A stretch of DNA of 48,321 nt from a virus (IMGVR_UViG_3300025030_000039:380878-429198); one strand, 5' to 3'. Positions 5,196 to 48,321 are shown, numbered from the stretch's first letter. The notes: generated from the letters alone by a model not told the origin. Program-made: numbers and translations.

Positions 5196-6029
5196 TTAAT
5201 CTAATTTTTCTCCACATGTTGGACAAAATTTCCATGTCGATTTTTTAATTCTTGATCTACATTCTGGACAATATTGTCTATTATCAGTTGGAAAAATAAC
5301 AGTTTTTTGAGATTCAGGAAGAATCTTATATTCAACAAATGATGAACAATAAGAATTAAATTCAATATCTATTTGATCAAAATATTGACTTGAAGTTTTA
5401 CCTTTAGATATTCTACCAGTTTCTTTTGTCGCAGACATTTTAGAACATTTAACTGATCTTTTATTTTCATTTAAAAATCCTTTAGTTTGTTCTTGATTAG
5501 AATTTACATTAATATTGATATCTAAGCTATCTGTTGTAGTAGAATATTGTCCACTAGTATTTGTAACTCCTGTTGAATAAAAACATGTATTAATATTTTG
5601 AGTTCCATTTGTATACGTACCAGGAAACCAATAATCTTTGTCAAAAGATAATGTTAAATTTTGATTTTTAACTTTTTCATCATAAAATTCTATACGTAAA
5701 ATACCATTTTTTGCAATAGCATGATTAGTTGATTGATTATTTTCAACTTCATACGTTTCAAAAAGAAATTTACGATTCTGATCTAAATATCTATCTAACC
5801 AAACTCGTTCACCTGGTTTTAAAACAAGTAAATTCTTTGACATAGAATTACCATTAAAGATAATTTTAATACCGATAGTATTTTGTTTTGGATTATAGAG
5901 TTCTAATTCAAACTCATCTTTGTCTCTTAAAAAGACATTATTATCGTTTGCCTGGGAACGATAAACCCTTTGTCTGTTTTTGCCTATGGCCACGTGAGCC
6001 TCTGGCGTTCCATAAAATAATTGTACCAT
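5196..6029 (-). CDS. hypothetical protein with C-terminal zinc ribbon (CPEC...CPTC)
   Basis: C-terminal CxxC-x14-CxxC; S/T/N-rich linker; N-terminal 30 codons noticeably GC-richer than surroundings. Confidence 0.45.
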   Translation of the reverse strand: MVQLFYGTPEAHVAIGKNRQRVYRSQANDNNVFLRDKDEFELELYNPKQNTIGIKIIFNGNSMSKNLLVLKPGERVWLDRYLDQNRKFLFETYEVENNQSTNHAIAKNGILRIEFYDEKVKNQNLTLSFDKDYWFPGTYTNGTQNINTCFYSTGVTNTSGQYSTTTDSLDININVNSNQEQTKGFLNENKRSVKCSKMSATKETGRISKGKTSSQYFDQIDIEFNSYCSSFVEYKILPESQKTVIFPTDNRQYCPECRSRIKKSTWKFCPTCGEKLD

Positions 6030-44999: not shown

Positions 45000-46232
45000 T
45001 TATTTTAGAGATTTTTTTAATTCTTTTAAATCATTAATATACATTTCTTTAGGAATTAATTTTTTAGTTTCAATTAATTCTGCCTTTTTAATTTCAAACT
45101 GATTCATTAATTCATCATATTTTTCTTTTGTTAATGAATGAATAGCCATTGACAATAAATAAGAATAAGAATCATCAATTTTATCAAATTTTAACTTACT
45201 TAATGATTCAATTATTTTATCTTTAGGAACTTTATTAACTTTAATTTCATTATCTATTATTCCCTTTATAAAGCGTGCTTTGTTAGATAATATTTTAACT
45301 TCATATTCTGATTTATCGATTAGATAATCTTTTCTTTTTTGATAGTAATTTAATCTAAAATCAACAAAATATTGAACTATATCTTTAGCAGATTTAAATA
45401 TTTTAAGCTTTCCTGTTTCATCAAGAGTTGTTAAATTTTCAGTTTCATATTCTTGTAGCTTAAATAAATCTTCAATTTTTTCCTTTTTAAGGAAAGTCGC
45501 TAAATTTGTTCTAGAAAATTTAATTTCATAATTTATATTTTGTGAACAATTATCTTCATATGAAGCTATTTCTTTTTTTGCTAATTTAGAATTTAAATGT
45601 TTTTCATATTTTTCATATGTTGTGCTAGGTGGTAATTCTGATATAATTATTGTACTTGTATTTGTTACTGCATATTTTCCTTCAAATATCCACCTGTTAG
45701 ATTTTTCTTCATCTTTATAAATGCCTCCTGTAAAATCTTTAATCCATGGTGGTAATTCTCTAATTTTTTTACTATCTAAATGATCAAGACATGCATCAAT
45801 TAATGTTTTTGGATTTCTATTTAATATATTTGTTGCAAATCCTACAGCAATTCCTGAACTTCCATTTAATAATACAGTCGGTATTATGGGTAAGAAGAAA
45901 TTCGGTTCAATTTCATTTCCTTCTTCTATTTTAGATTCTAATAATTCGAAATCTTTATATAATAATCTAAAATTAGGATGTAACCTAGTTGATATATATC
46001 TAGGAGCTCCTGCTTCGGGAGATCTTAAACTACCAAATTGTCCAATTTCATCTAGTAGTGGCATAGAATTTTTATAAGATTGTGCCATTCCTATAATTGC
46101 TTGATTTAATGCTGAATTATGAACTACTATTTTAGATTTACCTACTACAAAACTTTCATATTCAGGAACTGATATATCATAATATTTTTTAGGTTCATTT
46201 AAAATATTAATTTTTATACTCTTTATTTTCAT
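45000..46232 (-). CDS. topoisomerase II A-type (GyrA/T4 gp52-like) subunit, C-terminal fragment, preceded by intein C-terminal splicing segment (Int-C, ~39 aa) with its own start codon
   Basis: N-terminal MKIKSIKINILNEPKKYYDISVPEYESFVVGKSKIVVHN (intein blocks F/G, terminal HN) then extein SALNQAIIGMAQSYKNSMPLLDEIGQFGSLRSPEAGAPRYISTRL (cf. GyrA SAVYDTIVRMAQ...GNFGS...AAMRYTEIRL; active-site Tyr). Confidence 0.65.
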   Translation of the reverse strand: MKIKSIKINILNEPKKYYDISVPEYESFVVGKSKIVVHNSALNQAIIGMAQSYKNSMPLLDEIGQFGSLRSPEAGAPRYISTRLHPNFRLLYKDFELLESKIEEGNEIEPNFFLPIIPTVLLNGSSGIAVGFATNILNRNPKTLIDACLDHLDSKKIRELPPWIKDFTGGIYKDEEKSNRWIFEGKYAVTNTSTIIISELPPSTTYEKYEKHLNSKLAKKEIASYEDNCSQNINYEIKFSRTNLATFLKKEKIEDLFKLQEYETENLTTLDETGKLKIFKSAKDIVQYFVDFRLNYYQKRKDYLIDKSEYEVKILSNKARFIKGIIDNEIKVNKVPKDKIIESLSKLKFDKIDDSYSYLLSMAIHSLTKEKYDELMNQFEIKKAELIETKKLIPKEMYINDLKELKKSLK

Positions 46233-47491
46233 ATATTTTCATTTATAAAATCAATACATAGTTTATAATTTTCTTCAATAGATTCTGTATCCCATATAAC
46301 TAAAACTTTAAAATTATTTAATTTTGCTAATTGTATTTTTTCTTCAAATATTTTTAAATATTTTTTATATCCTTCTTTAGTCATTGGATGATACCATTTA
46401 TTTAATTTGTTAATATATCTATAATCTGGATGCCATCTACATCCATTAAATTCTATTATTAATTTTTTTGTTTTAATTGTTAAATCATAGAAAAAATAAC
46501 TATTATTTTTTCTTTCTAAATAAAATTCATTTTTATTTTTATTACTATCTCCATAATAAATATCATAAGTATTAATACTTTTATCGGTTATTAAATAATT
46601 TATAACTTTACTAAAAACTTTCATAGAAGCATTAGAAGCATTAGAATTAAAAGGTTTATAATACCCATTTCTTTTTATTAATATATTTTTAACTTTTAAT
46701 TTTACTTCTTCTATTTGACCTGGATTAATAATTCCTTCTCCATATCTTTCTGTAAATGTATTTTTAATTTTTTCTTTTACTTTATCTCTTTGAAAAACAT
46801 TTACAATTCCCTCAGTTTCTAATAATTTATTTTCCCAATTAATTCTAGATTTAGAGTTTTTAGAAAAATTATGTTTAGTTCCACAACTTTTGATATATCC
46901 AAGTTTTTTATTTTCATCTCCACATTTTTTAGAACAAGTTTCTTCACCATTTTTATTAAAATATTCTTTATCACATATTTTACACTTTTGATATTTTCTA
47001 CATTTAGAACATTTAGTTGAATATAAATTTAAATCTTTTTCAATATATTTTAAACTTATAAATTTATTATTATATTCTTTATTACATCTTTTACATATTA
47101 AATTTTCATTTTTAATTTCTTTTAAATCCATGTTTTATTTTATATATTAACATAAATTTAAGCTTTTTATTAGCATGAAGACTTAGGTTAAATAAGATAT
47201 AATATCATCACCTTCTTTTAAGTCTTTTACATATTTCCAAATATTACCTTTTAATAAAAATGGATGATACTCGGTAAATTTAAATATTTCGCCATTTTCC
47301 ATTTCTATTTCGTATTCTTTATCTGTAATTTGACCTATACGTGCATTGCATCCTTCAGCAATAACAAATTTATTATTAATATCATCAAATGCGATTATAT
47401 TCATTTTTTTATTAGGGTAGTTTTCAGCCCATTCACCAATTTTAATATAACTACCGTCTTCTAATAAAATAGGAGTATCATAATCCCCGCA
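46116..47491 (-). mobile_element. intein inserted after YHHGD of the topo II A subunit, fractured into Int-N / free-standing endonuclease gene / Int-C
   Basis: Cys at +1 of intein (codon 47491-47489) after extein ...AFYHHGD; intein ends HN (codon 46118-46116) before Ser+1; blocks A (CGDYDTPILL), B (TEYHPFLL), F, G identified by eye. Confidence 0.6.
46229..47131 (-). CDS. free-standing endonuclease gene inside the intein: N-terminal Cys-rich zinc-finger repeats plus C-terminal Vsr-like (PD-(D/E)XK superfamily) nuclease domain
   Basis: multiple CxxC pairs in first 90 aa; YDLTIKTKKLIIEFNGCRWHPD and NFKVLVIWDTE resemble Vsr/DUF559 blocks (..ifvDGcfWHgh.. / ..vlrfWehe..). Confidence 0.45.
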   Translation of the reverse strand: MDLKEIKNENLICKRCNKEYNNKFISLKYIEKDLNLYSTKCSKCRKYQKCKICDKEYFNKNGEETCSKKCGDENKKLGYIKSCGTKHNFSKNSKSRINWENKLLETEGIVNVFQRDKVKEKIKNTFTERYGEGIINPGQIEEVKLKVKNILIKRNGYYKPFNSNASNASMKVFSKVINYLITDKSINTYDIYYGDSNKNKNEFYLERKNNSYFFYDLTIKTKKLIIEFNGCRWHPDYRYINKLNKWYHPMTKEGYKKYLKIFEEKIQLAKLNNFKVLVIWDTESIEENYKLCIDFINENI

Positions 47492-47722
47492 GTCACCATG
47501 ATGATAAAAAGCTTCTGCAGATACTTTACCTCCTAATTGAAATACTTTTAAAGGTTTTTCTTTACCTGTCTTCCAAATTTTATTTGCAATAAAAACTATT
47601 TTTCTTGCTGTAGGTTTTAACCCATCAATTACGGATGGAATTGCTCTATGTTCAACTACGTATTGTGCATACTCTAAATAATCTTCATCACAATATTGTG
47701 ATATTGTTTTATTATTTACCAT
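47183..47722 (-). CDS. topoisomerase II A-type subunit N-terminal fragment (77 aa extein) fused to intein N-terminal splicing domain (Int-N, ~102 aa), terminated by stop
   Basis: EYAQYVVEHRAIPSVIDGLKPTARKIVF...AFYHHGD (cf. GyrA [29 protein letters not shown]...KYHPHGD) followed by CGDYDTPILLEDGS...GEIFKFTEYHPFLL. Confidence 0.65.
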   Translation of the reverse strand: MVNNKTISQYCDEDYLEYAQYVVEHRAIPSVIDGLKPTARKIVFIANKIWKTGKEKPLKVFQLGGKVSAEAFYHHGDCGDYDTPILLEDGSYIKIGEWAENYPNKKMNIIAFDDINNKFVIAEGCNARIGQITDKEYEIEMENGEIFKFTEYHPFLLKGNIWKYVKDLKEGDDIISYLT

Positions 47723-47730
47723 AAATGTGT

Positions 47731-48321
47731 TTAAAATAAAGCTGTTTCTAAAATTAAAGGTTCACCTAATATTTTTTCTTTTCGTTCATCAGATTCCCCA
47801 GCAAACCAAGCTGATAATGTACTTTGATATTCTCCATCCTTTGTAATTTTTATTACTTTAGGATTTTTTAATATTTCTTCATACTCATAATCTTCCAATG
47901 AAGCTAATCCCTTTTTATATTCTACATTCCAACTTTTAACATCTTTAATAGAATGCTCCCATTTATCATATTCATCTTGAGTATAAAAATAATTTATAGC
48001 AGTTCCTTTTTTAGTTACAACTAACGGAGTCATAACTTTATATATTTTTTCCTGCTCGAATAATTCTGGCCAATATTTTGCAAAGAAATGTATTAATGCG
48101 CCTGCAATAGCATTACCATCTGGATCAGCATCTGTATAAATATATAATTTTCCATATCTTAATCCAGCAGGTACTTCACCTAATTTTAATCCTACTGCGC
48201 CCATTAAACCTAATACTTCTTCGTTTTTAATTACTTTAGCATTAGTTAATTCACTTACATTAATAAATTTACCTTTTAATGGAAAAGCTCCAAACTTTTG
48301 AGAATCTCTAAATTTACGTAC
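47731..48321 (-). CDS. topoisomerase II B-type (GyrB/T4 gp39-60-like) subunit, C-terminal TOPRIM part; gene continues beyond window end
   Basis: frame stays open upstream of first Met (…GAFPLKGKFINVSELTNAKVIKNEEVLGLMGAVGLKLGE…); PLKGKxxNV and YIYTDADPDGNAIAGALIHFF (DxDxDG TOPRIM motif). Confidence 0.6.
   Translation of the reverse strand, partial: VRKFRDSQKFGAFPLKGKFINVSELTNAKVIKNEEVLGLMGAVGLKLGEVPAGLRYGKLYIYTDADPDGNAIAGALIHFFAKYWPELFEQEKIYKVMTPLVVTKKGTAINYFYTQDEYDKWEHSIKDVKSWNVEYKKGLASLEDYEYEEILKNPKVIKITKDGEYQSTLSAWFAGESDERKEKILGEPLILETALF

Follow-up and report, generated by a model that had tools for sequence, protein, structure and literature searches.

The 48,321-nucleotide (nt) stretch of viral DNA analysed here (IMGVR_UViG_3300025030_000039:380878-429198) carries a gene for the DNA-cleaving A subunit of a type II topoisomerase (topo II), related to T4 gp52 and GyrA, in which the two parts of the host protein are separated by two halves of an intein and by a free-standing endonuclease gene. 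Below, "the window" means this whole stretch, and all positions are counted in it. The sequence of the window is that of bases 118150-166470 of LR756500.1, a 462-kb phage metagenome assembly without annotation. Other DNA loci that were compared with the window locus are given L-numbers (L001-L091) and homologous proteins are given P-numbers.

The locus consists of three open reading frames (ORFs), all on the minus strand. ORF 1 (47183-47722, 179 amino acids (aa)) begins with the N-extein, codons 1-77 at 47492..47722, which ends in ...EAFYHHGD. Past residue 77 it runs directly into the N-terminal intein half (IntN, 47183..47491), whose 102 codons start at Cys1, which is Cys78 of the ORF, and read CGDYDTPILL...FTEYHPFLL...DDIISYLT, with TEYH as block B, followed by a TAA stop codon at 47183-47185. 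ORF 2 (46229-47131, 300 aa) has its own ATG and encodes the free-standing endonuclease. The 51-nt spacer in front of it (47132..47182) forms the 5' leader of the endonuclease gene and bears the motif TATATAAAATA just upstream of the ATG. Two additional TAA codons in the frame of ORF 1 are found in this spacer and, since the ATG of ORF 2 is in that frame as well, three TAA codons lie between ORF 1 and ORF 2. ORF 3 (45000-46232, 410 aa) is in a frame different from that of ORF 2; the TGA of ORF 2 and the ATG of ORF 3, at 46230-46232, overlap by 4 nt (ATGA). It opens with the C-terminal intein half (IntC, 39 codons, 46116..46232), MKIKSIK...IVVHN, and continues with S; across the end of the intein the sequence is MKIKSIKINILNEPKKYYDISVPEYESFVVGKSKIVVHN followed by SALNQAIIGMAQ. 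The C-extein (45000..46115) comprises 371 codons, Ser+1 (46113-46115) and 370 more, and ends in TAA at 45000-45002. The codon of the catalytic Tyr, in APRYISTRL, is at 45996-45998. An earlier note, made from the sequence alone, had described these three minus-strand ORFs as Int-N, endonuclease and Int-C, including the passage from ...AFYHHGD into intein blocks A and B, the stop at 47183, the 51-nt spacer with further stops, the ATGA overlap in front of MKIKSIK and the catalytic Tyr in PRYISTRL, and this description agrees with the sequence to the base.

Both exteins match the same families. The N-extein matches Pfam DNA_topoisoIV over residues 26-83 (E 1.6e-12, profile positions 1-56) and PHROG 551, "DNA topoisomerase II" (E 1.6e-23), and aligns with uninterrupted homologues. 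The C-extein matches DNA_topoisoIV over residues 39-402 of ORF 3 (E 3.4e-71, profile positions 50-431) and PHROG 551 (E 1e-113). The C-extein match, from profile position 50, resumes where that of the N-extein stops, at 56. A DNA_topoisoIV domain, a catalytic Tyr and a Toprim gene directly upstream identify the gene as the gp52/GyrA-like one of a T4-type topo II.

The window has a G+C content of 22.8%, and 55 of its 68 long stop-to-stop ORFs are ended by TAA. An alternative genetic code was considered as the cause of the breaks and rejected: codes 4 and 15 were tested and no sign of TGA or TAG reassignment was seen in the window, TAA stops dominate, and the standard code gives full-length conserved ORFs.

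Intein halves and insertion site

A comparison of the segments 47183..47491 and 46116..46232 with intein models had been proposed in the earlier note, and both segments score over the cut-offs. NCBIfam model TIGR01445 (intein_Nterm) reaches 38.7 bits against a cut-off of 24.5 over residues 78-156 of ORF 1, and TIGR01443 (intein_Cterm) reaches 27.2 bits against 15.6 over residues 18-40 of ORF 3; the intein assignments of both halves are significant. Pfam Intein_splicing scores the joined halves at 43 bits (gathering score 35.8), and either half alone stays under the gathering score. When a profile of the family was compared with inteins of solved structure, NrdJ-1 was the best match (E 3e-13), followed by DnaE (Npu/Ssp) and gp41-1. 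A single-sequence structure model of the joined intein had a predicted local distance difference test score (pLDDT) of 42 and was not used. The element has the features of a class-1 intein: at the N-terminal side Cys1 and T-E-Y-H as block B, and at the C-terminal side ...YYDISV...IVVHN followed by S, the deviation being a Glu at the position of the block-F His.

Removal of the intein restores a continuous host protein, 77 + 371 = 448 aa, and a spliced product would have this length, not the ~480 aa expected in the earlier note. Uninterrupted homologues of 447-450 aa are present in three related huge phages (LR756504, LR745206 and LR756502; 634-642 kb). Their residues 1-77 align with the N-extein and, exactly at the junction, they read ...YHHGD then SSL... 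or ...YHHGN then ASL..., so that the comparison with uninterrupted alleles, also proposed earlier, defines the insertion site. In IMG/VR, 61 more intein-less alleles are continuous over the junction, with T, G, S or A as the +1 residue. In every intein-bearing allele the +1 residue is Ser or Thr, as the chemistry requires.

We take the junction, YHHGD then S, to be the Asp82-Ser83 bond of E. coli GyrA (YHPHGD82-S83-AVYD87), at the start of the quinolone-resistance region. The region around Asp82-Ser83 of GyrA is a conserved DNA-gate element. We also considered whether the intein is an allele of the classical GyrA intein and rejected this possibility, because the site differs: it is 39 residues upstream of the catalytic Tyr. 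The GyrA inteins of Micromonospora and Verrucosispora are located directly after the catalytic Tyr (AAMRY then C...HN then T).

The two halves carry opposite net charges, -9 for IntN and +3 for IntC in the window. The same sign pattern was seen in all 16 alleles examined, with -6 to -15 for IntN and +1 to +7 for IntC.

The endonuclease gene and its leader

The N-terminal half of ORF 2 contains four Cys pairs (C13/C16, C41/C44, C50/C53 and C66/C70), which resemble zinc ribbons, as well as helical repeats, and is presumably the DNA-binding part of the protein. In Pfam, ORF 2 has only weak matches, to DUF7479 and DUF7487, and a search of the PDB with the single sequence gave chance matches only. 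In a large protein collection 54 homologues were found, several of them with the JGI label "very-short-patch-repair endonuclease".

As judged by profile and fold comparison, approximately residues 165-300 of ORF 2 (46232-46639, minus strand) are a Vsr/I-Bth0305I-like nuclease domain of the EDxHD type. A profile built from the C-terminal 136 residues of 18 family members matches E. coli Vsr (1cw0, 1vsr, 1odg) with E ~3e-5 and the catalytic domain of I-Bth0305I (3r3p) with E 4e-5, and 14 of the 18 members match Pfam DUF559. For an AlphaFold model of ORF 2 based on the family alignment (pLDDT 88), the top Foldseek matches in the PDB are Vsr, with probabilities of 1.00 and 0.99; I-Bth0305I (3r3p) is matched with a probability of 0.80-0.90 and a template-modelling (TM) score, on the target, of 0.5-0.6. 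Residues E202, D216, E227, H234, K265 and W280 are invariant in the family, and the first four correspond, within the EDxHD motif, to E, D, the acidic residue at Vsr Phe62 and H. The description of this ORF in the earlier note, a Cys-rich part plus a Vsr-like nuclease, is thereby borne out.

No second copy of the ORF 1/ORF 3 intein family or of the ORF 2 nuclease domain was found elsewhere in the window. In the annotated collection, the only relatives of the N-terminal and middle region of the endonuclease are weak, unannotated matches (27% identity, E ~7e-4) in the Tenacibaculum jumbo phages PTm1 and PTm5 (AP019524.1/AP019525.1, ~23.5-24.1 kb).

The leader of the endonuclease gene contains a 19-nt sequence, ATATATAAAATAAAACATG (47129-47147, minus strand), that ends in the start codon and is not repeated exactly anywhere else in the 48-kb window. 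The same 19 nt stand ahead of a second endonuclease ORF of the phage (~5224-5242, minus strand, of L090, which is LR756500.1 162500-173500), and near-identical TATATAAAATAAAA motifs stand ahead of the endonuclease genes in L011 and L008. Several related loci have exact TATAAATA and GGTGAT/ATCACC palindromes; the window leader, with TATATAAAATA, has no exact TATAAATA. These observations are consistent with the possibility that ATATATAAAATAAAACATG is a promoter or leader carried by mobile elements. Regulation through the leader, as in the Aeh1 and GOS cases, is plausible by analogy. A scan of the 23% G+C DNA for sigma-70 promoters gave sites no more numerous than in shuffles, and a scan for terminators found none.

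Recurrence, variants and movement of the element

Proteins composed of the N-extein and IntN, 167-186 aa in length, form at least 55 clusters at 90% identity. They are 44-68% identical to ORF 1, cover 88-100% of it, and are encoded on contigs of up to 566 kb. Among 49 aligned alleles, Cys1 and the block-B His are invariant, and the ORFs end a few residues past a shared ...DDI... motif; among 15 aligned inteins of the family, the block-B Thr, the block-F Asp and the terminal His-Asn are invariant. The same split is present in 18 IMG/VR loci plus L006, L008 and L091. The three-part layout, IntN / endonuclease / IntC, is found in L010-L021, L023-L027 and L091, and in L008 with an extra small ORF. 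The downstream halves all start with MK(I/V)K... and end in (T/V)HN followed by (S/T), and in the related loci the 3' end of the endonuclease gene overlaps the downstream half by 4-38 nt or abuts it directly. The split loci were found by an alignment-based search; a locus search with a single protein had returned only two intein-less alleles. In the GenBank phage collection the intein half was found in LR756500.1 alone. A scan of 185,579 cellular genomes revealed no split allele of the family; apart from a single contig in a Chitinophagales bin, which is probably of phage origin, its matches were ordinary GyrA genes.

This recurrence bears on the possibility of an assembly error, which the earlier note had itself raised. 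The split might be only apparent, an intein that is in fact contiguous and contains the endonuclease having been broken up by faulty assembly or sequencing. The record is indeed a metagenome assembly with 22.8% G+C, and the endonuclease ORF shares the frame of ORF 1. However, the parts are set apart by a change of frame as well as by three TAA codons; the stops, being TAA, are unaffected by reassignment of TGA (code 4) or TAG (code 15), and the ORFs end at the same points in at least 55 independent clusters and in some 20 loci, drawn from different samples. We therefore regard an error as effectively refuted.

Several states were found at this one site: empty, contiguous mini-intein, split with a full endonuclease, split with endonuclease remnants, and split with an unrelated ORF. 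The mini-intein is in L022 (4501-6270; IMGVR_UViG_3300025425_000010), where a contiguous topo II A ORF of 589 aa includes a 144-aa, endonuclease-free intein of the same family at the same YHHGD-S site; it represents a cis relative of the split alleles. Endonuclease remnants are present in the split alleles of L020 and L028. In L006 (566-kb contig) a 148-aa ORF unrelated to the endonuclease lies between the halves (5524-5970), and in L008 (443-kb contig) a small ORF of 106 aa lies between them (5550-5870). Neither of these two ORFs showed similarity to the endonuclease or a match in Pfam.

Also at this site, in L091 (1306-2256), in P0036-P0041 and in the remnants of L028 (5083-5318), the N-terminal module with Zn ribbons and DUF7487-like sequence is shared and the C-terminal domain is other than the Vsr-like one. 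In L091 and P0036-P0041 this domain can be read from its motif, H-x-D-H...N...N (HHIDHIYP...N...N), as HNH-like, Pfam making no HNH call. The sequences suggest that nuclease modules may have been swapped on a common DNA-binding module.

The ratio of non-synonymous to synonymous substitution rates (dN/dS) was calculated for inteins and exteins; many pairs are saturated at synonymous sites (dS), and only unsaturated pairs are quoted. The intein is under purifying selection, with dN/dS of 0.09-0.3, similar to the exteins (for example, 0.13 for L013/L024 and 0.14 for L018/L020). Between L013 and L024 the inteins are 95% identical (dS 0.18) and the exteins 64% identical (dS 2.7). L018 and L020 show the reverse pattern, with inteins 82% identical and exteins 99% identical; the endonuclease of L020 is decayed. 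Such discordant divergence of intein and exteins indicates that the element moves between divergent topo II genes, as homing predicts, and the sequence distances mark such movement as recent.

A candidate trans-splicing topoisomerase

The explanation we favour, with a probability of roughly 85%, is that the locus is a fractured gene, in which a split class-1 intein and a free-standing Vsr-like endonuclease interrupt topo II A, the halves being joined by trans-splicing and the endonuclease acting in homing. According to this model, a class-1 intein sits at YHHGD-S in the gp52/GyrA-like gene and a Vsr-like homing-endonuclease gene has been inserted between intein blocks B and F. The insertion gives the upstream half its stop codon and the downstream half its start codon, so that the subunit is translated as two polypeptides, one consisting of the 77-aa N-extein and the 102-aa acidic IntN and the other of the 39-aa basic IntC and the 371-aa C-extein. 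Drawn together by their complementary charges, the halves would form a HINT domain. Protein trans-splicing would then proceed through a thioester at Cys1, attack by Ser+1 and cyclisation of Asn39, yielding a 448-aa subunit (~51 kDa) that would contain the tryptic junction peptide VSAEAFYHHGDSALNQAIIGMAQSYK. The endonuclease would cut intein-less alleles of co-infecting phages, and repair would copy the whole element into them. The two activities, trans-splicing and cleavage by the endonuclease, are those we infer from sequence.

Some observations count against this explanation. First, at several nearly invariant positions the window intein departs from the family more than any other member does: Gly stands at residue 2 where the family has Leu (L2G), Phe replaces Cys just before the block-B Thr, block B is TEYH as opposed to TxNH in the family (N to Y), and the block-F His is Glu, as it is also in L011. 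The core catalytic residues are all present, but the sequence leaves room for an activity that could be lower than that of its relatives. Second, dN/dS for the intein is higher between the window and L011, at 0.27; the exteins of this pair give 0.30. Third, members of the ORF 2 subfamily do not conserve the final Asp of the EDxHD motif (Vsr Asp97); Glu262/Glu263 are nearby in the window. Finally, in the leader, the promoter-like motif TATAAAATA exceeds the T4/Aeh1 late promoter TATAAATA by one base, and a predicted 13-bp stem that would bury the AUG, with the motif in its loop, has an energy (z = -1.0) indistinguishable from that of shuffles.

The non-consensus residues at four nearly invariant positions are compatible with a scheme in which no splicing takes place. 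In that scheme the intein remnants would be association domains and the A subunit would be assembled non-covalently, as are T4 gp39/gp60 (mobA) and Aeh1 NrdA (mobE), and phage genes split by endonucleases whose products assemble without splicing are indeed known (10.1101/2022.08.31.505936). However, Cys1, the block-B Thr and His, the block-F Asp, the penultimate His, the terminal Asn and Ser/Thr at +1 have all been kept, and association alone would not need them. The intein is moreover under purifying selection, and its nearest solved relatives are active trans-splicing inteins. Assembly without splicing is therefore improbable in our view. We consider it less probable still that the element is decaying in the window phage, with an inactive intein and a topo II A that is non-functional or dispensable. 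L2G and the other three departures from the family described above (Cys to Phe, Asn to Tyr and His to Glu) could be taken in this sense, and huge phages might use host gyrase, but the three ORFs are intact and of full length, the endonuclease retains every family-invariant residue and the exteins are conserved (Pfam E 3e-71). In addition, the H-to-E change in block F is common to the L011 lineage, which is also intact, and the GyrB-like partner gene is likewise kept as intact halves.

This partner is a second fractured gene. The ORF at 47731-48321 (minus strand) encodes the C-terminal part of the GyrB/gp39-like topo II subunit, with Pfam Toprim and TOPRIM_C matches. This part forms the C-extein of another split intein, and the junction of the two lies 15 nt past the end of the window. 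In LR756500.1 the GyrB-like gene is in three parts (L090 3381-7059, minus strand): a 596-aa N part, ...GIFEGL then CLEENTFVKV..., a free-standing ORF of 373 aa whose C-terminus bears an HNH-like motif, and a C part of 244 aa, MENNF...GIISHN then SALSAVRKF.... The gene is thus split in the Toprim motif, FEG(D) then SA. The C-half scores 21.7 bits with TIGR01443 (cut-off 15.6), and in the N-half intein features (Cys1; TEKH) are recognisable by eye only. At the same site the gene is split in L006, without an endonuclease, and in L008, with a Vsr-like endonuclease, and it is uninterrupted in L011, L019, L024 and L028. The profile of the intein in the gp52-like subunit does not detect the GyrB-like intein. 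Since both subunits are fractured, the topo II would need four polypeptides and two independent trans-splicing reactions. Each of the two elements has its own free-standing endonuclease, and the 19-nt leader ATATATAAAATAAAACATG ahead of both endonuclease genes is identical. It is conceivable, if rather doubtful, that both elements have been domesticated, the shared leader and translational coupling timing the synthesis of the C-halves and two orthogonal trans-splicings gating topo II assembly during infection.

The architecture as such is known. Dassa et al. (2009) reported 26 metagenomic fractured-gene loci of eight enzyme types with an endonuclease between split intein halves; the hosts were gp41-1 to gp41-8, NrdJ-1, IMPDH-1, NrdA, DnaE, ligase and terminase loci, and topoisomerase is absent from the host types in that study (PMC2677866). 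Vsr-like endonucleases, then a new family, were present in 12 of these loci, and the study also described, for these original split inteins, hairpins in the leader, a TATAAATA element, an endonuclease gene whose 3' end runs into the downstream gene, and halves of opposite charge (PMC2677866). Three of them, gp41-1, NrdJ-1 and IMPDH-1, splice fast in trans (PMC7090010). The window locus resembles the loci of 2009 in that a DNA-metabolism gene is split at the canonical endonuclease insertion point, with a Vsr-like or GIY-YIG endonuclease between the parts (PMC2677866), in an endonuclease gene whose 3' end overlaps the beginning of the IntC gene, in an acidic IntN and a basic IntC, perhaps in a late-promoter-like leader element with a possible hairpin, in the Cys1/Ser+1 pair, in the phage or metagenomic setting, and in the existence of variants without the endonuclease. 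It differs in its host gene (gp52/GyrA-like) and site (YHHGD-S), which are not among theirs, in an overlap of 4 nt (ATGA) as opposed to 6-69 bp, and in the N-terminus of its endonuclease, which has zinc ribbons and DUF7487-like repeats instead of NUMOD motifs.

A further case is mentioned in one sentence of a 2022 preprint on the T4 gene 60 element, a Hint-VSR-HintC arrangement in the large topo II subunit of one metagenomic sequence (10.1101/2022.08.31.505936). Here too a T4-type topo II gene, Topo2L (gp39-like) of MGS5, is split by intein halves around a Vsr-family endonuclease. However, this is the other subunit, and the gp52-like subunit is not reported there as intein-bearing (10.1101/2022.08.31.505936). 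The MGS5 interruption is probably the one found at the GyrB-like split site of the window phage, L006 and L008. We found no literature report of an intein in a gp52/GyrA-like topo II subunit. Thus, of the novelty claimed in the earlier note, a topoisomerase fractured with a Vsr-type nuclease, the host gene and insertion site do appear to be new, while the nuclease type is not unusual, given the 12 loci of Dassa et al. and the 2022 preprint.

The breaks in T4 39/60 (mobA) and Aeh1 nrdA (mobE) are similar in that a free-standing homing endonuclease interrupts an essential phage gene and the enzyme stays active (PMC2677866; 10.1101/2022.08.31.505936), and in the mobA case the broken gene is topoisomerase II itself. 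Unlike the window locus, they contain no intein, and the separate pieces associate by added tails; T4 also uses translational bypass. The endonuclease I-Bth0305I (3r3p; PMC3239194) shares with the window enzyme a build in two parts, an N-terminal region for DNA binding (presumed in the window enzyme) and a C-terminal Vsr-fold nuclease, and the conserved Glu, Asp, acidic residue at Vsr Phe62 and His. In contrast, I-Bth0305I resides in a recA group I intron (PMC3239194), and the window enzyme has another N-terminal module and lacks a conserved final Asp; the similarity of the two is detectable by profile only (E 4e-5). Classical cis GyrA inteins (Mxe GyrA type) also interrupt a GyrA-family cleavage subunit in a conserved active-site region, but they are contiguous and have an internal endonuclease domain. 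Finally, the DnaE split inteins (Npu, Ssp) have the same HINT split point, an IntN of 102 aa, an IntC of 36-39 aa and charge complementarity, and they give significant profile matches. Their halves, however, are encoded at distant loci with no endonuclease between, and their +1 residue is Cys and not Ser.

With this locus, the few fractured genes known from nature gain another host protein and a new insertion site, which probably lies in the DNA-gate helix region of the cleaving subunit. Among GenBank phages, the gp52-like fractured gene is in one record only, where it is unannotated. Unless this architecture is taken into account, gene callers will break the topo II of these huge phages into two to four fragments accompanied by "hypothetical" proteins. 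Cys1/Ser+1 split inteins such as gp41-1 and NrdJ-1 are among the fastest protein-ligation tools, and the gp52-like family and the unrelated GyrB-like intein are candidates for new orthogonal pairs. The gp52-like family, with its empty, mini-intein, split (with two types of nuclease module), decayed and endonuclease-free split forms, constitutes a natural series at one site in which the 2009 model of split intein origin can be tested.

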